Of a stretch of DNA of 44,793 nt, positions 925 through 33,988 are shown in pieces; within the stretch, counting starts at the first letter, position 1, and every line of letters begins with the position of its first letter. The notes beneath the pieces are model-generated. The model saw nothing but the letters and a program-made list of their open reading frames with translations, was not told the origin of the DNA and did no database searches. Both the position numbers and the translations under genes were made by a program. The stretch is from a virus (Duplodnaviria; Heunggongvirae; Uroviricota; Caudoviricetes), in IMG/VR virus record IMGVR_UViG_643348551_000008, positions 1 through 44,793 of that record. One strand, 5' to 3'.

Positions 925-3900
925 TATGCAAGCCTCACAATATAGTTAAATGCGATGTTTTTGACGGTGTTTTCCGCGTTACCAGCAGCGTTAACGGTGA
1001 TGGTGTGTCCATGTGAGCCAATCGCAACGGAGTGCGTATGAGCACCAATACCGACAGTATGTGCATGTGCGCCTGCGCTTGCAGCAGTGCCGGACAGCGA
1101 GTGGGTATGAGCACCATCTGATGATGTCTTCCCTGCATTACGAGTCTGGCCACTACCGCTTGTTGTGCTCATAATCCCCGCGCTTAGATTTGAAATCGCG
1201 GTATAACCATTAGGGAAAATGCTCGTGTTCGTGCCACCAAATGCACCGGAACTCTTGTGTTGGTGCGCACCGGCACTATTTGCAGTCCCGCTAACACTAT
1301 GGGTATGCGCCCCAGTGTTATTCGTGGATTTAGTGCCGTAATCAAACGACGATGTGGTTTTCGTACCCAAATCCGTACTGGATGCGCTGGCGCTGTGGGT
1401 GTGCGATTTAATGCCGTCCTGTTCCTGAGACAATACGGCCCGACCACTGGCAGGTTTGCCCTTAATCGTCCAGCCACGCATATCAGGGATCACGCCTGAC
1501 GGATAAGCGGCTGCAAGTTTCGGGTATGCAGATTTGTCAAAAGTCTGCCCCTGCATCAGGACATAACCAGACGGAACGGTATCTGATGGCCACGGGATTG
1601 GTGCACCGACTGGATAAAACTCTGCAGGAGGATGAGCCGAGGTGTAAAGCTGCGCCCACGGCGACCAGTTTGCGTCGGTCGTATCCCGTCGTGAACGAAT
1701 AAATGCCGGAGCATGAGCACCGCTTGTACCACTCCAGCCGATGAGTAACTCACCTTCGCCAACGGCTGTCATCCCTTTCAGGTGAATGATATTTCCATAC
1801 GTTGTTGGATATCCGTTGTTATACACCTCGTATAACTCAAGACCTGCTGCCCCCTGCGTATTGTCTGTCAGCGCGGCTACCCGACCTTTTGAAGCCAGAT
1901 TAACTGATGATACTGCTGTTCCACCTGACGGTAGCGCCCCGATCTCTGATGCCGTTGGCTTATTTCTGGAGTTATAGTCCCTTCGCCAGCCAGGTGAATA
2001 ATCTGTTCCGTGATTAATATAGGTAAACTGGGCGTTGGTTGTTCCGCCACCGCTGGATGTGGTCGGAGTGGTAATGCGGATCGTCATCGCTGACTTTATC
2101 CCCATTACTTCAATGACAGCTCCGGCGAGATGAATATTACCGCAGCCAGTATCAGTAATGATTTTATTATTGCCATAAGACCAGGAACCCTTGCACATCC
2201 AGTATGGATGGTTAAATGCTCCCTGAGAATCCAGCCACTCGATAAACTGTGCAGTCGTCCAGTTTCCTGTTGTTGTGCTTACTGACCCACCGAAGGCACG
2301 GCAGGCACCAATATTTTTCGTAAAGGTGTCTTTGCCAGGGATATCCGCACCGTTCTGATCTTTCTGCAGACGTTTCTCAGCATTGTCATTGGCTGCTTTT
2401 ACTGCCTTTGGCGTTGCCGCCAGCGTTTCAGACGTGCTGTTGGTCGCGCTGCTTAGCTGGATTATCCCTTTCTGTGCTGTCGTTGCATCCTGTGCGGTGT
2501 ATTTCCCGCTAGCCAGGTCATACGCGGCCTTAACGGCTTTTGGTGTTGCCGCCAGTGACTCGGAAGTGCTGTTAGTCGCACTACTGAGCTGTACTATCCC
2601 CTTTTTCGTCGTGCTCGCATCCTCAAGCGCCACGGCGGATGCAATATCCTCTGCCCGTTTTGCCGCTGTCTCAGCGCGCGTTGCTGCAGATTCCGCCGTA
2701 CTTTTGCTCTGAGCTGCTGCCTTCGCACTACCAGCAGCCTCTGTCGCCTTCGTGGATGCCGTCGTGGCGCTGCCCTTCGCTGCTGACGCCTGTCTGGTCG
2801 CCTCATCTTTTGAAGCAGACGCCGATGATGCCGATGACGCCGCCGAACTGGCGGACGATGCCGCTGCCGTTTTTGAGGATTCTGCACGGGTTTCCGACGC
2901 TTTCGCGTTCGTTTCGGATGTCTTCGCTGCGGAAGCTGACCTCGCTGCTGCCGTGGCCTGCTCAGTGGCTTCGCCAGCCTTCGTTGTGGCTGTTGAAGCG
3001 GATGATGCGGCGCTTTCTGCCGATTTTCCGGCGGCGGTGGCACTGGCTGAGGCCTGCCCGGCACTTGTTGACGCGGCACTGGCAGACGACGCAGCCGCTG
3101 TTTTTGAGCCTGCCGCAGCTGAGGCGCTCTGTCCCGCTGCCGTCTCAGAAGACCTGGCGTTCGTCTCGGACGTTTTTGCCGCCTTCGCGGAATTTCCTGC
3201 CGCCGTTGCCGAGGAAGCTGCGCTACTGGCGCTCAAGGATGCGTTCGTTTCTGATGATTTCGCTGCCTCTTTTGAGGCCGCCGCATCCCGGGCTGAGGTG
3301 GCAGCTTCTGACGCTTTCGTGGTCGCGGTGGATGCAGAAGTGGCGGCTGATTGTTCTGACGCTGCGGCATTCGTTTCTGACGTTTTCGCCGCACCGGCAC
3401 TGGTAGCTGCCACGCTTTTTGAGGACTCTGCAGCGGCAGCACTTTTTGAGGCTTCAGTGGCCTTTGTTGATGCCGTTCCTGCGCTGGAAGACGCTGACTG
3501 AGCCGACGAAGCGGCCTGTCCGGCTGACGTGCTGGCTGCACGTGCTGAATCTGCAGCATCAGTCGCATGGGTTGCCGCCTCACGGGCTGATGTGCTGGCA
3601 TCGCTGGCTGACTTCTTCGCGGCTGCCGTGTTCTGTGCCACCGCGGACGCGTTACGCGCCACCTCTTCCACCATCAGTTCAAAACGGCGCAGTGCCTCAG
3701 GACGGGCATCATCCTCCGTCATGGCACCGAGAAAATCATTCAGCGTACCGGGTCGGGAATCTTCATACACGGTGATGGTCCCGGCATGTGACGGCGGGAA
3801 TCCCTCCACCAACAGAATAACGCTGTACTGCCCGTACTCAACGTCCATGCTGTAACGCCCGGCTTCATCCGGATTTTCTGAGGCCAGCGTGTTCACCACC

Positions 3901-25925: not shown

Positions 25926-26078
25926 TTATTCAGATTTACGCAGTAAAGGCCGGAGCACGACCAGCGCCATCGCCACCAGCACACCATCTGCCAGCACCGA
26001 CATCAGCCGTCCGGTGAAATCCACCGCCACTACCAGAAACAGCAGGATGGCAGCCAGCACAAGGCGCGCACTTTTCAC
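25926..26078 (-). CDS. Small hydrophobic protein (50 aa, GTG start coupled to the upstream stop)
   Basis: VKSARLVLAAILLFLVVAVDF...; GTGA overlap with the stop of the TerB-like gene, GGAG 7 nt upstream. Not in the ORF track because under 60 aa. Confidence 0.3.
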   Translation of the reverse strand: MKSARLVLAAILLFLVVAVDFTGRLMSVLADGVLVAMALVVLRPLLRKSE

Positions 26079-26500
26079 AGGTACTGCTCCAGCGGTAGCT
26101 GAAGCGCCTGCGCAATTTTCTTGAGCTGTGTTTCTTCATCCGGACCAATGCCATCCTGGTCAGCGATATCCAGACACAGGCACAGCACATTAACTGCGTC
26201 ATCAGTACCTGCCACGTCAGCCAGCTGACGAAGGGCTTCAGCATTGGCAGAGCGCGGCGACGCTTCATAACGGGCGCGGATATTTGCACTCATTTGTGCA
26301 ATCTCACCGGAGAACGGCGCAAAGGCAGGAAGTGCTGCAATGGTTTTCTCCAGTACCGCGACTTCTTTCGCGTCACAGGTGTCGTCAGCATATGCAATGG
26401 AATACGCGCCCCAGACGGTCGCCTCCACTGCGTCGCGGTTCTCCATCTTCTTCACTTCGGTAATGGCCTTGCGGGTTTTCTTTTTGAAAATACCAAACAT
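26075..26500 (-). CDS. TerB-like domain protein (tellurite-resistance TerB family), cargo gene
   Basis: 141-aa ORF with the recalled TerB pattern (N-terminal MFGIFKK, ...IAYADD...DIADQDGIGPDEE...). Confidence 0.5.
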   Translation of the reverse strand: MFGIFKKKTRKAITEVKKMENRDAVEATVWGAYSIAYADDTCDAKEVAVLEKTIAALPAFAPFSGEIAQMSANIRARYEASPRSANAEALRQLADVAGTDDAVNVLCLCLDIADQDGIGPDEETQLKKIAQALQLPLEQYL

Positions 26501-26872
26501 CGTGACTTTTCCTTTTAGTGGGTGAGCCTGCGCCCGGGGGTGACCAGCCCACAGAGAAAGTCACACTGACCATCCCGTAAGCTCACCCCTGAAAGGCTCT
26601 GTGGTTTTTGATGTGCGCCGGGCGTGGCGCAAAGAAATGAAATAAGACTTACCTGAAATTAAGGTTAATCTGAGGATTTAAACCATTTTTAAAGCTTAGT
26701 AATATCAACTCGTCTCCTGAAGGAGACAGATACTTATGATTCTTCATGGACTTTGTCCCGCGGCGTTAATCCGACGGCCGCGCTTTTTTTGCGCCATATT
26801 CATCGCTAACTTACATGGCATTGCCACACGGGCATTATCAGTGTCCGTGTTTCTTTTTTTAGGGTTCAGAAT

Positions 26873-26897
26873 AAAAAAAACCGCCCGGTGGAGGCGG
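26873..26897 (-). terminator. Intrinsic terminator downstream of the tRNA genes
   Basis: Stem ccgccc/gggcgg (26881-26897) followed on the minus strand by a U8 run. Confidence 0.65.
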
Positions 26898-27178
26898 TAA
26901 AGGATGTATTTCCAGGTTTTGCTTAGTATATGATTAATCTCAATGTCATTTTTAGCGATGTTTACAACATCGGGATGACACATCACCGACCCTGTCAGGA
27001 AATACAAAATCTCCACCGACAATGCGCCATTCCGATGTTATAAAAAATCAGCACTGATACCGTAATAAATAACATTCATTACAGGACGGGATGTAGTAAG
27101 GAGTCAGGGTAAAACAAAAACATCCCACACATATAATGTGTCAGTGCCTAACACAACCTAGCATCTATTGTCCTCGGC

Positions 27179-27253
<75 letters not shown>

Positions 27254-27256
27254 ATA

Positions 27257-27332
27257 TGGTGCCGACTACCGGAATCGAACTGGCGACCCGGTGATTACAA
27301 GTCAGTTGCTTTGTCTGCTAAGTTAAATCGGC
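27257..27332 (-). tRNA. tRNA-like gene, possibly tRNA-Thr (UGU) with imperfect stems (may be degenerate)
   Basis: Acceptor GCCGATT/AGTCGGC plus CCA and T-loop TTCGATT present; anticodon loop CTTGTAA but only 3 bp pair in the anticodon stem and the D-arm is atypical. Confidence 0.4.
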
Positions 27333-27513
27333 AACGGTTCCTCGGAAAAAATAAAACGACCGATATATGCATTATTTCCCTGTCATCTCCTCGGAACTGA
27401 CTATTGATATTAATGAGGGCAAACACTATTTCAATAAACATAGTGTCAATATTAGTAAATATATGTATAAATTTCTATCACTCGTGATTGATTACAAATA
27501 ATCACACACATAT

Positions 27514-28560
27514 TTAACTATTTTCTTTTATTTCGCTTACAGTCTGGTTAAATCTCTCTTCTTCCTGCTCCACACCTATTGCATGCCGTCCCAGCGATAA
27601 TGCTGCTTTTATTGTTGATCCCGACCCCATAAAAAAATCAGCAACCAAATCTCCCGGATGGCTGCTGGCGGTAATTATCTGACGCAACATATCCGCCGGT
27701 TTCTCACAGGGATGTTTGCCGGGGTAATACTGCACAGGCTTGTGCGTCCAGACATCCGTATACGGAACAGCTGCCGATACGGAAAAATAACGCCGCAGGG
27801 ATTTGTACTCTTCCAGCAGGCTGGCATATTGCCGGTTCAGTTCACTGTATGTGCTGACCAGCTGGTGGTGCGGCTTTTCCAGTTCACCGCGTTGATGTTT
27901 TTCTGCTGCAACACGCGCAAACAACGCCTGTAATTTCAGATAATCGCCTTCGTTCGGCAACTGCCACTGACTGATACCAAACCAGTGCGAAGCCATGTTT
28001 TTCTTTCCGGTGACTTCCGCTATCTGTTTTGACGTTATACCCAGTGATTCACGCGCATCACGAAAGTAAGAAATCAGCGGAGCCATCACGTGCTGCTTAA
28101 GCTCGCGCCCCTTTGCCGCATAGCCGTCATTTTTTGGCTGATATGGCCCCTGATAATGTTCAGCAAACAGAATGCGTTCTGTTGCCGGAAAATACGCCCG
28201 CAGGCTTTCCTTGTTGCACCCGTTCCAGCGCCCGGACGGCTTCGCCCAGATAATATGGTTCAGCACATTAAAGCGCTCACGCATCATGATTTCGATATCA
28301 GATGCCAGGCGATGACCACAGAACAGGTAGAGACTTCCGGCAGGTTTCAGTACCCGCCAGAATTGCGCCAGACACTGATCCAGCCATTTCAGGTAATCAT
28401 CGTCGCCCTTCCACTGGTTATCCCAGCCCTCGGGCTTCACTTTAAAGTATGGCGGGTCTGTGACTATCAGATCGACAGAGTTTTCCGGTAAGGTCTGGAT
28501 AAATTCCAGGCAATCAGCGTTGATTAACTCACAACTGGATATTTTTACAGTATTAGCCAT
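27514..28560 (-). CDS. DNA methyltransferase (N6-adenine/N4-cytosine class, orphan)
   Basis: DPPY motif near the N-terminus and FxGSGST near the C-terminus; no adjacent restriction endonuclease. Confidence 0.8.
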   Translation of the reverse strand: MANTVKISSCELINADCLEFIQTLPENSVDLIVTDPPYFKVKPEGWDNQWKGDDDYLKWLDQCLAQFWRVLKPAGSLYLFCGHRLASDIEIMMRERFNVLNHIIWAKPSGRWNGCNKESLRAYFPATERILFAEHYQGPYQPKNDGYAAKGRELKQHVMAPLISYFRDARESLGITSKQIAEVTGKKNMASHWFGISQWQLPNEGDYLKLQALFARVAAEKHQRGELEKPHHQLVSTYSELNRQYASLLEEYKSLRRYFSVSAAVPYTDVWTHKPVQYYPGKHPCEKPADMLRQIITASSHPGDLVADFFMGSGSTIKAALSLGRHAIGVEQEEERFNQTVSEIKENS

Positions 28561-28700
28561 AGATCAATAAGCACTTCTCTGATAGGCTCATACCGCTTTT
28601 GCGCAAAGCAGATGGGCCTGAGGTTTGCTTGTGACCCCAACGCATGAGCAGATGGCTGGCAGGTGCCGCTAACACCCACCAGCCGCCCATTACCACAAAT

Positions 28701-28724
28701 TAAAAAGCCTTCACTGCGGAAGGC
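28701..28724 (-). terminator. Intrinsic terminator at the 3' end of the 65-aa gene
   Basis: Stem gccttc/gaaggc (28707-28724) followed on the minus strand by TTTTTA. Confidence 0.55.
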
Positions 28725-28908
28725 GTCTGTAACAACCGAACTGATAATCTGCCAGACCCGCCATAACAAGCTGAGTCAGTATTAACTGGCAGCGTTCGCG
28801 TGAAAGGTAAGTATTCTGCGCAATTTCCCCGACGGTCGCTGGTTCGGTGACACTTAATTCATTAAATACCACTCTGGCGGTTTCGGTCATATCCTGCTGT
28901 TTTAGCAT
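28711..28908 (-). CDS. Small putative DNA-binding protein (winged-helix-like), 65 aa
   Basis: ORF bracketed by terminator-like hairpins; pattern EPATVGEIAQNTYLSRERCQLIL resembles an HTH. Confidence 0.4.
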   Translation of the reverse strand: MLKQQDMTETARVVFNELSVTEPATVGEIAQNTYLSRERCQLILTQLVMAGLADYQFGCYRRLPQ

Positions 28909-29030
28909 GTCTTTTTCCTTTTCTGGTTAACGTGACATACCAATAACTCTTGTCTAAAAAGCCAGCAAGCTGAAAGACCGGTATTCGCAACCACCAGCGC
29001 ATTTAACGTCCTGTACCGCTTTTCGGGCAC

Positions 29031-29056
29031 AAAAAAAACCGCTCATCGGCGGGTTT
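29031..29056 (-). terminator. Weak intrinsic terminator (possible tR'-like)
   Basis: Short GC stem ccgc/gcgg followed by a U8 run on the minus strand. Confidence 0.4.
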
Positions 29057-29165
29057 AAGCTGTGTGACGTAGTAATCACTCTTAACATCATATTTAAATT
29101 TTTACGTACGTAAACCTGTACGTATAACTTTATATTATAAAAATGCAACAACTATAATATTTTAG

Positions 29166-30360
<1,195 letters not shown>

Positions 30361-30361
30361 T

Positions 30362-30514
30362 TAGATATTTTAGATATTTTAGATATTTTAGATATTTTAG
30401 ATATTTTAGATATTTTAGATATTTTAGATATTTTAGATATTTTAGATGTTTTAGATGTTTTAGATGTTTTAGATGTTTTAGATGTTTTAGATATTTTAGA
30501 TATTTTAGATAAAT
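30362..30514. repeat. 9-bp tandem repeat array (about 16.5 units: 9x TAGATATTT, 5x TAGATGTTT, 2x TAGATATTT)
   Basis: Directly visible; abuts the IS5 right end and lies about 175 bp upstream of the porin start codon. Confidence 0.95.
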
Positions 30515-30689
30515 ACTGCATTGAAAATTATCACCAATATTTAACACCACACATAAATGTGATATTGATCACACTATAAACCCTTAAATAAACCCCATAT
30601 CTTGAAATAACAGTACCGATTAGATGTATATTTAAGTTGCAGCGACATCATTTTTTAATAATAGTTCCCAAAAGGACTAAGGATTCATA

Positions 30690-31772
30690 ATGAAAAAATT
30701 AACAGTGGCAATCTCTGCTGTAGCAGCATCAGTATTGATAGCTATGTCCGCTCAGGCAGCTGAGATTTATAACAAAGACAGCAATAAATTAGATCTGTAC
30801 GGAAAAGTTAATGCCGGGCACTACTTCTCCTCTAACGATAAACACGATGGTGACAAAACTTATGCTCGTCTGGGATTCAAAGGTGAAACCCAAATCAACG
30901 ATAAACTGACTGGTTTCGGTCAGTGGGAATATGAATTCAAAGGCAACCATGCTGAATCTCAAGGTTCCTCCGCAGACAAAACCCGTCTTGCGTTTGCTGG
31001 TCTGAAATTCGGCGACTACGGCTCCATCGATTATGGTCGTAACTACGGTGTAGCATACGATATCGGTGCATGGACTAACGTTCTGCCAGAATTCGGTGGC
31101 GATACCTGGACTCAAACAGATGTATTCATGACTGATCGCACCACAGGTGTTGCAACTTATCGTAACAACGACTTATTTGGTCTGGTTGATGGTCTGAACT
31201 TTGCTGCTCAGTATCAGGGTAAAAATGACCGCACTGACGTAACTCAAGCTAATGGTGATGGTTTCGGTTTCTCCACTACTTATGAGTATGAAGGATTCGG
31301 CGTAGGTGCAACCTATGCTAAATCTGACCGCACTAATAATCAGGTTATCTACGGTAACAACAGCCTGAATGCATCTGGTCAAAATGCTGAAGTATGGGCA
31401 GCTGGTCTGAAATATGATGCGAGCAACATCTATCTGGCTACTACCTATTCTGAAACCCAAAACATGACTGTTTTTGGTAAAAACCATATTGCCAACAAAG
31501 CACAAAACTTCGAAGTAGTTGCACAATATCAGTTCGACTTCGGTCTGCGTCCGTCCGTTGCTTACCTGCAATCTAAAGGTAAAGACCTTGGCGTTTTTGG
31601 TGACCAAGATTTAGTCAAATATGTTGATGTAGGTGCAACCTATTATTTCAACAAAAATATGTCAACTTTTGTTGATTACAAAATCAACCTACTTGACAAA
31701 AATGATTTCACCAGAAATCTTGATATAAACGCCGACGATATTGTTGCTGTCGGTATGGTTTACCAGTTCTAA
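30690..31772 (+). CDS. nmpC: Outer membrane general porin, NmpC/Lc (OmpC/OmpF) family
   Basis: 360-aa ORF with signal peptide [23 protein letters not shown] and C-terminal ...VGMVYQF; resembles recalled DLP12 NmpC; located next to Q. Confidence 0.8.
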
Positions 31773-31910
31773 TTTTTTTATTAACAAGATATGTTGTGAG
31801 GAGATATTTATCTTCCACAACATGTAGGTGATGCCCTCACATCACTGCATTCAGAAAGACATTTTTGTCTTTTCTTTTTAACCTTCTGTTATTTATTACC
31901 CTAAACTCTT

Positions 31911-31935
31911 GGGGCGTTTTTGCGCCCCTTTTTTA
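31911..31935 (+). terminator. Intrinsic terminator downstream of the porin gene
   Basis: Stem ggggcg/cgcccc followed by TTTTTTATT on the plus strand. Confidence 0.65.
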
Positions 31936-31959
31936 TTCAATTTTGCCAGCAAACGTTAG

Positions 31960-32343
31960 TCAATAACACCTAACAACTTCGCGATCCATCTCGAGACGAA
32001 CATCCAATGCCATCAACATTCCTTCGACTATTCCTTCAGCCTTCTGAAGTTTTTTTCCTATATATCCATCAGAACAATGATGCTTACAGGCCAGTGCCAT
32101 GAACGTCATACCAACCACATAATAATCTATCAGCAAATCATGCAAATCACTGTTGTTCTTTTTCAGACGAGCCATGCAACCACAGATAACCATTGCGTCA
32201 TCATCACAACATTGCGGGCGTGACTTAACCTTTGACGGAATCAGTCCTTTGAATCCCGCAGCAATCGGTGACCAGGTAACATCCTCGTGGTTATTTGCCA
32301 CCCATGCCCCCCAACGCTCAAGAACCATCTGGATATCACGCAT
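31960..32343 (-). CDS. Late-gene antiterminator Q (phage 82/DLP12 QuuD-like)
   Basis: 127-aa [27 protein letters not shown]... resembles recalled QuuD; lies after the replication genes. Confidence 0.75.
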
Positions 32344-32600
32344 CAGCGCAGTACCTCCTGCACCAGCTTTTCAAACTTCCCAACCTTGGTTTCCAGCTCT
32401 GCCACACAGTCCACCAGCTCATCCACTGCTTTTTGTGCGCGATGTTTTGCTTGCATCAGTTCCCTGAGCGCTGGCACCATATCCCGACGAATGGCATCTT
32501 TTGTTACACCTGTTTTTTCCAGTTGTTCCGCCTGTCGCAACATTTCCTGTGCCTGTTTACGTAATTGTTCAGGGGTAAAAGTCATTGTCTGGTTGTTCAA
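32343..32600 (-). CDS. Hypothetical coiled-coil protein (85 aa)
   Basis: ORF only; position between helicase and Q. Confidence 0.4.
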
Positions 32601-33988
32601 AAGAAACGCTCCATCTTACTGCTGTCAGTTCGTTTGTTGCTGTATCTGCGCGGCTGAGGCTGCTGCATTGGGGTGGAAAGAATCTGTGCGCTTTCCTGAT
32701 CCACAGGCAGAAAATGTCCGTTATAAAAACGCCGATAAATCGTCCCCAGAGAACCGTTACGTTGTTTCGTGATATTGATTTCTGCGATGCCCCTGGCCTG
32801 CGTATCCGGGTTGTACACTTCATCCCTGTAAAGCATCAGAATGATGTCTGCATCCGCCTCTATTTCTCCGGAATTTTTCAGGTCTGAGTTCATGGGGCGT
32901 TTATTGGGTCTGGACTCCACACCGCGGGAGAGCTGGCTCAGCGCAATCAACGGAAAACCACCGGATTTTGCCAGGCCTTTAAGCCCCTTTGAGATTTCAC
33001 CCACGGCAAGGTCATGACGCCCCGTGGTTCGGGTTTTTATCAGTCCGAGATAATCAACCACCACCAGCGCCGTTTCCGGATGTTTAATCAGGTGGTGTTT
33101 CGTTGTTGCGCATATCTCGTCAATGGTCAGGTTCGCCTGGTCCACCATCCAGATATTGCGCCCGGTCATCCGCCCCACTCCTTGTGAGAAACGTGCCCAG
33201 TCTTCGTCTTCAAAGTGAGTGACAGATTTCAGGCGTGATACCGGCATTCCTCCAGCCGCAGATACCATGCGTTCACCAATCTGGATGTTCGCCATTTCCA
33301 TTGTGAACAGAAGAACACCATGCCCCTGCTCAGTCACCTTGTCGATGATATCCAGCGCCAGTTCGGTTTTGCCCATCGAAGGACGTGCAGCAATAAATAC
33401 CAGGTCGCCAGGCTCCATGCCGCCCGTTTTTGCGTCCAGTTCATCAATACCGGTCATCAACGTTCTGGATTTTTCCAGTCCCTGATTCCGGCATTCAACA
33501 CGCTCAACCACTTCCGGAAGCACATCATCAATATGTACCGGCTGAATAACGCCCTTTTCCGTCGACAATGAGGCCATCATGTTCTGCGCATCCTTCAGGG
33601 CATCTTCAGCTGCTTCACAGGTATGCGCATCACGTAATTTCTGCAGCGCCTCATTCAGTGTTTTTTCTGCATCGCGCAATGCGGCATTGCGTCGCAACGC
33701 TGCAACATAGTGCTCCAGTGAAGACTTCACCCAAGTTTTACGCCCAGTATCAGTAATCACCGGAGCAAGTTCCGGCATCTCATTGCACAGCAGCACAGGA
33801 TCAATCACACCTGAAACACGAGCCTGTCTGCAGATGCCTGTGTAGATATCCCTATACGCTCGTACAGAAAAAACGTCCGCAGGTAGTGTGGCCAGAATAT
33901 CCATCACTTCAGGATCTGCCCCACGCAGAAAGAACGCGCCAATGACAGCGCCTTCCAGGTCATCGTTACGCCAGACTGGGGTTGTCAT
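32597..33988 (-). CDS. Replicative DNA helicase (DnaB-like)
   Basis: Track ORF trimmed to MTTPVWRNDDLEG; Walker A-like GKTELALDI and RecA-like C-terminal domain. Confidence 0.8.
   Translation of the reverse strand: MTTPVWRNDDLEGAVIGAFFLRGADPEVMDILATLPADVFSVRAYRDIYTGICRQARVSGVIDPVLLCNEMPELAPVITDTGRKTWVKSSLEHYVAALRRNAALRDAEKTLNEALQKLRDAHTCEAAEDALKDAQNMMASLSTEKGVIQPVHIDDVLPEVVERVECRNQGLEKSRTLMTGIDELDAKTGGMEPGDLVFIAARPSMGKTELALDIIDKVTEQGHGVLLFTMEMANIQIGERMVSAAGGMPVSRLKSVTHFEDEDWARFSQGVGRMTGRNIWMVDQANLTIDEICATTKHHLIKHPETALVVVDYLGLIKTRTTGRHDLAVGEISKGLKGLAKSGGFPLIALSQLSRGVESRPNKRPMNSDLKNSGEIEADADIILMLYRDEVYNPDTQARGIAEINITKQRNGSLGTIYRRFYNGHFLPVDQESAQILSTPMQQPQPRRYSNKRTDSSKMERFF

Follow-up and report, generated by a model that had tools for sequence, protein, structure and literature searches.

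A probable Q-dependent late promoter and terminator unit separated from its Q gene by a porin gene and IS5 in a lambdoid prophage

Introduction

The late promoter PR' is located immediately downstream of the antiterminator gene Q in phages lambda, 21 and 82. In the lambda unit (PR'-qut-6S RNA-tR') a constitutive promoter has a Q site close by, polymerase pauses near the promoter, and a short terminated RNA precedes the late genes; this RNA has about 194 nt, compared with about 49 nt in the unit described here. The logic would be the same in both, but the Q family of lambda is unrelated according to the literature, and the positions of the Q-binding element (QBE) and of the pause relative to the start are different; in lambda the pause element is at +1 to +6 and pausing occurs at +16/17.

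Phage 21 has a Q protein of the same Pfam family (PF06530) as the locus studied here (Yin et al. 2019; OL657228). Its pR'21, which our module parallels in layout, holds -35, QBE, -10, start, pause element (SDPE) and terminator in about 85 bp and gives an RNA of about 50 nt. There is no DNA similarity between pR'21 and the module described below, and the Q proteins show only a weak, distant match (E=1e-8, 38 bits, against the Q21 structures 6P18/6JNX). QBE21 lies between -35 and -10 and has two 8-bp direct repeats in tandem, whereas our module carries an 8-11-bp palindrome which overlaps the -35, with an A-tract after it. The phage 21 pause element is at +2 to +7, and our candidate is at -3 to +3.

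For prophage Sp5 of Sakai, Sy et al. gave a distance of 258 nt from the dRNA-seq start of PR' to the Term-seq end of tR' (NC_002695.1 coordinates), and the small RNA StxS is produced from this PR'. A published survey of Stx pR' regions included several without the reference pR' site.

We analysed a stretch of 44,793 nt of a virus of Caudoviricetes (IMG/VR record IMGVR_UViG_643348551_000008), here called the window. An original prediction, made from its letters alone, had proposed a layout resembling PR'-pause-tR' on the minus strand at 29031-29140, located after the oppositely oriented porin gene and beside IS5. Our results indicate, with a probability of roughly 0.85, that a lambdoid prophage has its Q-dependent late promoter and terminator unit (the equivalent of PR'-qut-tR') at minus-strand positions 29116..29031. 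The original prediction was thus right in substance and wrong in anatomy. It correctly located the unit past the porin gene and IS5 and not beside Q, and every feature that it listed is present in the sequence, but the promoter element which it chose and the role which it gave to the TACGTA motifs are not supported.

Results and Discussion

A conserved module upstream of the late genes

The late genes of the window are read on the minus strand. In this direction the order begins with a DnaB-like helicase gene, Q, the porin gene on the opposite strand, a 9-bp repeat array, IS5 and the module, and continues on the minus strand with a 65-aa ORF, a DNA methyltransferase gene, tRNAs, TerB, two holins, endolysin, terminase and portal (Table 1). 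Between the end of IS5 and the first late ORF (about 28900-29165), the sole stretch resembling prophage DLP12 of K-12 is 29116..29033, which showed 88% identity over 84 bp with 3694..3777 of our K-12 locus (L126), just upstream of essD. The DLP12 region between nmpC and the lysis genes had been suggested for comparison in the original prediction, and the same module is indeed found there.

Table 1. Coordinates of the module and of neighbouring features in the window.
Feature	Coordinates	Strand	Basis or remark
Late regulatory module (box, promoter, leader, terminator)	29116..29031	minus	conserved in about 130 loci
TATAAT	29139-29134	minus	exact string in sequence
TACGTAC	29124-29118	minus	exact string
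14-bp palindrome TTTACGTACGTAAA, with A-tract to 29099	29101..29114	minus	candidate Q-binding element
8-bp core ACGTACGT	29111-29104	minus	exact string; core of the 14-bp palindrome
-35 hexamer TTTACG	29109..29114	minus	promoter scan match TTTACG-16-TATGAT at 29114..29087
-10 hexamer TATGAT	29087..29092	minus	promoter scan and conservation
AAGAGT, -10-like, -3..+3	29078..29083	minus	candidate sigma-dependent pause element
Predicted start (A, 7 nt past the -10)	29080	minus	homology to mapped base of K-12
Leader 5' stem-loop, +2..+6 with +13..+17	29064..29079	minus	97% of cells paired
TACG (TTCG in most relatives), TNYG match, +10..+13	29068..29071	minus	predicted pause near +12
tR'-type intrinsic terminator, AAACCCGCCGATGAGCGG then T8 (hairpin + U8), +25..+50, weak allele	29031..29056	minus	homologous to terminators with 8-9-bp stems in relatives
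65-aa ORF	28908-28711	minus	first ORF that the module would serve
DNA methyltransferase	28560-27514	minus	second gene that the module would serve
IS5 copy, 1195 bp	29166..30360	minus	94.6% identical to K-12 IS5B
Porin gene (ompC/nmpC-like)	30690..31772	plus	PF00267, 499 bits
Q antiterminator gene, 127 aa, QuuD/Q933 type	31960..32343	minus	PF06530, 182.5 bits (cut-off 26)

About 130 copies of the module were collected by pattern scans, two of them independent searches of viral contigs and the third a search of species-representative genomes; the genome-wide scan gave many chance matches outside Enterobacterales, and only matches with the CTTAA continuation of the leader were retained. The copies are found in prophages of E. 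coli and Shigella, in Stx phages, and in Trabulsiella, Kosakonia, Erwinia, Yersinia, Pantoea, Atlantibacter, Enterobacter and Citrobacter. Four parts can be recognised: a short palindrome and then an A-tract; about ten variable bases with TAnnnT at their end; the near-invariant GTTAAGAGTGGTTACTTCG, which is continued by CCACACAGCTTAAA in most members; and a G+C hairpin with a U tract. The Rfam scan of 26000-33000 (E<=1) gave nothing at the module, and the motif strings had zero matches in the paper texts searched.

DLP12 of K-12 (quuD - nmpC::IS5 - essD) shares with the window the Q clade, the box TTTACGTACGTAAA, the leader, the terminator and a porin gene between Q and the module. It is different in three respects. 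IS5 breaks the 3' end of nmpC in K-12, whereas in the window it lies upstream of an intact porin gene, in the 9-bp repeat array. The module of K-12 leads directly to the lysis genes, whereas in the window the 65-aa ORF, the methyltransferase and the tRNAs come first. The K-12 terminator is also stronger than that of the window.

The Sp5/933W PR' can be aligned base for base with our module in the box, the -35, the -10, the AAGAGTGGTTAC leader, the 5' stem-loop and the first terminator; the Sp5 sequence reads TTTACGATCGTAAAAA, then TATCAT, GATAAGAGTGGTTAC and the terminator. The module of the window is thus a close relative of the 933W-type PR', the promoter which drives Shiga toxin in such phages, together with the first ~51 nt of the StxS precursor. 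The similarity to Sp5 is limited to this part, and the window has no counterpart of the functional 74-nt 3' part of StxS or of the second Sp5 terminator at +258. The Sp5 module abuts Q, being located at the stop codon of Q933 (144 aa, PF06530) with the TAA inside the box, whereas that of the window is 2.9 kb off. The box cores also differ (ACGATCGT in Sp5 and ACGTACGT in the window), and the recognition loops of the two Q proteins differ to match. From the predicted Sp5 start (1846 of the Sp5 locus, L005) to the U tract of the following terminator (about 2103) there are 258 nt, which agrees with the distance of Sy et al., with the limit that the 142-bp coordinate offset for Sakai (NC_002695.1 to.2) was inferred from the 258-nt fit itself.

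Two minor observations concern the same prophage. The Q933 reading frame of Sp5 ends inside the palindromic box (L005 1812-1824). Past the second terminator (L005 2105-2225) there is a C-terminal remnant resembling a methyltransferase, and by eye Sp5 looks like a deletion derivative of the 65-aa ORF and methyltransferase arrangement of the window.

Linkage of the module to Q genes

The linkage to PF06530 Q genes is obligatory in our set. Such a gene was found upstream and on the same strand in 88 of 105 viral loci, which are all those with enough upstream DNA, and the set enlarged after the second scan contained 108 loci of this kind. The Q protein of the window is 82% identical to Q933 of Sakai Sp5. 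The distance from the Q stop codon to the module varied from 40 to 3049 bp. It is short at uninterrupted loci (40 bp in Stx2_95, 65-66 bp in Trabulsiella, 57-72 bp in Yersinia, Erwinia and Pantoea). At other loci genes are inserted: phiP27 has a GIY-YIG nuclease gene there, WGPS2 has two genes on the opposite strand, and DLP12, UMNF18 and the window have a porin gene. The module heads stx2 in phiP27, WGPS2 and Stx2_95, essD-rrrD in K-12 and the late genes in the window. The insertions after Q are varied, and the module therefore keeps to the late genes; it is probably what Q acts on, and not simply the end of the Q gene. Because Q acts as a diffusible protein, control should survive the porin gene and IS5 which separate it from its target.

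With a Q gene upstream in the same orientation, a sigma-70 promoter, an intrinsic terminator, and lysis and morphogenesis genes downstream, the cassette is an ordinary but well-defined member of the textbook class of Q-dependent late cassettes.

Promoter and predicted transcription start

The hexamer before GTTAAGAG was compared in 53 unique upstream sequences. T-12 was present in 49 of them and A-11 in all 53, positions -10 to -8 were free to vary, and T-7 was also present in all 53, where the invariance is partly ascertainment as this base was set by the first search pattern; among matches to the second anchor, only one locus (L133) deviates from T-7. Fixed T-12, A-11 and T-7 around variable inner positions are the signature of a sigma-70 -10 element. 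Hexamers resembling -35 elements (TTTACG, TTTACA, TTGCGG, TTGTGT) are located 16-18 bp upstream of the -10, and the promoter scan scored the same -35/-10 arrangement in Sakai Sp5. They are weaker in other classes, and the poor -35 of some classes counts against reading the module as a late cassette.

The K-12 base homologous to 29080 is L126 3730, which is NC_000913.3 577229. It coincides with a plus-strand start of the Cappable-seq data at U00096.2 576452 (relative read score 1.7, which is weak; enrichment 4.8), with an assumed offset of 777 bp between U00096.2 and.3 (a 776-bp IS1 plus 1 bp) that was checked only against gene coordinates. The Cappable-seq entries used are apparently from the plus strand only. 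From the homology with this mapped K-12 base, transcription of the window would start at 29080. The E. coli 3'-end table of Adams 2021 had nothing near essD among the entries listed.

Terminator

The original prediction read the hairpin and U8 tract as a terminator, and this reading is correct, though the allele of the window is weak. Its hairpin has 4 G-C pairs (-5.7 kcal/mol), whereas the relatives have 8-9 pairs (-10.8 to -15.6 kcal/mol). The whole RNA of the relatives reaches -18 to -22 kcal/mol, and the whole 50-nt RNA of the window had z = -1.66. The terminator scan did not score 29056-29031. We consider the hairpin as real because relatives have canonical terminators with 8-9-bp stems at this position, to which it is homologous. 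At 29031-29042 the window has GCGG-T8 where most relatives have GCGGG-T6/7, and half of the stem is lost; one further locus (L127) has this allele too. Other weakened terminator alleles (GAGCTGG) are common among DLP12-like copies.

Consensus folding of the ungapped alignment recovered the 5' stem-loop alone, and the terminator pairs were counted on a specified structure: in 27 distinct sequences, 93.7% of cells were paired, against 41-58% with the partners slid. Covariation in the terminator is modest since the sequence is so conserved. In several members this place is taken by an unrelated terminator of the hairpin-plus-U type, an argument that the element is functional.

The transcripts of the Sp5 lysogen extend to +258, which means that the first terminator, even in its strong version, is not fully efficient. 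No second terminator like that at +258 of Sp5 was found in the window, where the 5' UTR (28909-29030) gave z = 0.05. The weak allele predicts leaky, Q-independent late expression in this strain.

Leader RNA

The conservation of the leader goes far beyond the needs of a promoter-proximal region, and the leader RNA has a shape like that of small RNAs: a 5' stem-loop, the conserved single-stranded ACACAGCUUAAA and a terminator with U tail. One pair of the 5' stem covaries (GC in 16, GU in 6 and AU in 3 sequences; A-U in the window). Together with the precedent of StxS from the homologous PR' of Sp5, these features could mean that the module is mainly a small-RNA gene with a constitutive, trans-acting product of ~49 nt, and that Q control is secondary. 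We consider this unlikely, although it survives better than the other alternatives. No Rfam family matched the leader, StxS acts through its 3' 74 nt, a part without homology to the module, and a small RNA is in any case compatible with a Q switch. A separate function of the leader RNA, beside its place in a Q-dependent unit, is possible from its conservation and predicted structure.

The inverted repeat of the leader, GTGAT-N6-GTCAC, was also considered as a CRP site. It was rejected, with half-sites of GTGA-N8-TCACA at a spacing of 8 against 6 in the consensus, and most relatives carry GTGG/CCAC.

The palindrome as candidate Q site

The box TTTACGTACGTAAA is a perfect palindrome with one exact copy in the window, and it is kept in all cassettes tied to QuuD-type Q proteins. 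When the Q proteins were clustered and the palindromes tabulated, box type and Q recognition segment corresponded one-to-one in 108 loci, at least 10 classes and several genera (Table 2). The variable segment is residues 76-99, the sole unconserved block of the Q alignment, and the equivalent part of Q21 is said to contact its QBE.

Table 2. Pairing between the variable segment of Q and the box of the module.
Q segment	Box
...KH(H/C)CSDGYIGK(K/R)LQ (window, K-12, Trabulsiella)	ACGTACGT
...KHGCSDTCIGKRL(Q/H) (Q933 among them)	ACGATCGT
...SDCWVGRLLQ	ACAATCGT
...KCSDGTIRKELQ	GCGTACGC
...K(D/S)EK(L/A)IRIE(I/M)Q	GCGGTCCGC
...SDEKRVRIVIQ	GCGGGCCGC
...ISHTQILKRLQ	GGAATTCC
...ISLNQVVIRLQ	GTTATAAC
...ISHNHVSVRLQ	GTAATTAC
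...KCSEGKVR..LM	TTCGTTACGAA

Within one Q clade the box is constant and the DNA on either side is scrambled: two box classes occur in 10-13 different upstream contexts, and identical downstream sequence classes are found with several box classes. Genes are inserted between Q and box, yet the pairing was never broken. A constant box amid scrambled flanks is explained by recognition through Q, and not easily by linkage alone. So we suppose that the palindrome is somewhat more probably than otherwise the Q-binding element, as judged from its co-variation with Q.

Alternatively, the palindrome might serve a different regulator as operator, form a structural hairpin, or be a target for methylation or restriction tied to the adjacent methyltransferase. 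Q21 binds tandem direct repeats and not palindromes, the boxes look like restriction sites (TACGTA, CGATCG, CGGTCCG, GAATTC), and a methyltransferase gene is located downstream in the window. But the box is shared by K-12 and Sp5, both of which are without an intact methyltransferase gene downstream of it, the box class tracks the recognition segment of Q and not the class of the downstream gene, and the pairing stays intact despite insertions between the partners. These facts make such a role improbable, even a little more so than that of a gene mainly for a small RNA.

A second, partial copy of the box (TTATACGTAC) is located at 29118-29124, 12 bp upstream of the main palindrome. It occurs only in the window and in its near-identical relative UMNF18, and may be an auxiliary site or a recombination scar.

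Candidate pause element and proposed mechanism

AAGAGT is near-invariant also with an independent search anchor, and its positions 2 and 6 are A and T. TACG/TTCG is the 3' edge of the most conserved core. The spacing of these elements was compared with the described systems. The starts of QBE and SDPE are 28 bp apart in phage 21, the QBE being upstream; 28 bp back from AAGAGT (29083-29078) is 29111, the first base of ACGTACGT, so that QBEu would be 29111-29104 and the next 8-mer is the A-tract. Under these assignments the distance from the start of the Q site to the -10-like element is the same in both phages. In lambda the TNYG pause consensus starts 13 nt after the start of the pause element, and in the window TACG starts 12 nt after the start of AAGAGT. 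A coherent though unproven model would thus have the Q site at -31 to -16, the pause element at -3 to +3 and the pause at about +12. The assignment of AAGAGT as pause element is tentative, and its overlap with the start site, unlike the elements of lambda, 21 and 82, counts against the cassette reading.

AAGAGT was also tried as the -10 itself, with two upstream 8-mers as a QBE like that of phage 21. This was rejected, as the -35 would be CG(T/C)AAA; there is no purine at the expected start, and the mapped K-12 start suits TAnnnT as -10.

In the mechanism that we propose for the Q-dependent unit, sigma-70 RNA polymerase of the host would start at about 29080 from TTTACG-16-TATGAT. Without Q it would produce an RNA of ~49 nt, ending at the hairpin/U8 terminator. 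Q would recognise the clade-specific palindrome ACGTACGT with the flanking A-tract, overlapping the -35, and would be loaded onto polymerase held at a promoter-proximal pause that may depend on the invariant -10-like AAGAGT and on the TNYG site near +12. The polymerase modified by Q could then read past the terminator and transcribe the methyltransferase, tRNA, lysis and morphogenesis genes.

The wider proposal is that the palindrome overlapping the -35 is the QBE of a large QuuD/Q933 branch with at least 10 orthogonal Q-site pairs, that loading proceeds via the -10-like element overlapping the start with a pause at about +12, and that the 49-nt leader may have its own RNA function in lysogens. 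As a whole we give it an even chance. A palindromic code of Q sites with an early pause is possibly novel; no description of the palindrome-Q pairing was found in the literature searched, two papers on the DLP12 Q being outside that search.

The probable late start is hereby located for the prophage of the window, and also for DLP12-type and many Stx prophages with genes inserted after Q. Its location decides what Q controls: the porin gene is outside the unit, and the methyltransferase, the tRNAs and, in relatives, stx are inside. The pairing of Q type and palindrome would allow prediction, from sequence only, of which Q activates which late promoter in strains with multiple prophages, and this bears on the output of Shiga toxin. 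The Q-palindrome pairs may also offer a set of orthogonal antitermination switches.

Other promoter-like sites around the module

The original prediction took TATAAT at 29139-29134 as the promoter and the TACGTA motifs as pause or qut signals inside the transcript. A perfect TATAAT does exist there, and it could serve as a minor additional promoter in this AT-rich DNA. TATAAT was counted 7 times in the window against 12.25 expected from shuffles, so this copy is no more than chance; it is not conserved, the promoter scan found no -35 partner for it, and it sits in sequence outside the conserved stretch, missing from K-12 DLP12, from other relatives and from the other cassette classes. The mapped K-12 start equates to 29080 and not to ~29127, and the true -10 is TATGAT, 47 bp downstream. 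The TACGTA palindrome is found upstream of the start, overlapping the -35, instead of within the transcript. We therefore regard this anatomy as very unlikely.

The same low standing is given to distal upstream control of the divergent porin gene. On the plus strand, a promoter-like TTTATA-18-TATAAT (10 of 12) at 29129-29158 faces IS5 and the porin gene, and 29117 to 29165 is DNA specific to this porin-type prophage. Such control covers 29117-29165 only and not the conserved module, which recurs in phages without any porin gene. Before the insertion of IS5, ~340 bp separated the site from the porin ATG, and 30558-30660 offers a promoter region that is nearer, together with a consensus CRP site.

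Least probable of all is a late promoter immediately downstream of Q (31773-31960), with 29031-29140 as merely a downstream terminator or relic. PR' does have its textbook place there in lambda, 21 and 82. In the window, however, the promoter scan found no minus-strand promoter-like site in this interval, which contains the terminator of the porin gene (31911-31928, plus strand), and neither box nor leader recurs elsewhere in the window. The K-12 Cappable-seq data have no plus-strand start within 340 bp after quuD among the entries listed, and in relatives without insertion the module itself is 40 bp past Q.

Besides the porin terminator, the interval between the porin stop and the Q stop (31773-31960) has a sub-threshold Rfam match to suhB/mmgR at 31873-31943. 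We take this interval to equate to the place encoding the IpeX RNA of DLP12.

IS5 and the porin gene region

The IS5 copy of the window is a diverged IS5 variant. It was inserted in TTAG of the 9-bp repeat array, with target duplications at 29162-29165 and 30361-30364. Its end is at a distance of 52 bp from the -35, on the upstream side, and of 55 bp from the box core, so that the module is untouched, and the insertion adds 1.2 kb between Q and its target. UMNF18 has the same prophage type and the same porin layout without IS5.

The array itself, at 30361-30511 upstream of the porin gene, has 16.8 copies of the 9-bp tandem repeat TTAGATATT with 98% matches, against ~3 copies in UMNF18, and it may be a repeat of variable number with an effect on porin expression. 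A perfect CRP consensus (TGTGATCAATATCACA) at 30558-30573, ~125 bp upstream of the porin ATG and on the same side of IS5 as the porin gene, suggests a cAMP-CRP-dependent porin gene. The Cappable-seq data of K-12 also contain a strong plus-strand start in the late direction at U00096.2 576081 (L126 3359, score 90), beside the start codon of nmpC. The sequence around it (TATTATTAAAAAATGATG) is kept in the window at ~30651 on the minus strand; transcripts from there would head toward the late module and, in the window, into IS5.

Downstream of the module, a second tRNA was detected by Rfam at 27260-27332 (43.7 bits) which ARAGORN missed, and UMNF18 annotates tRNA-Thr and tRNA-Gly at this place.
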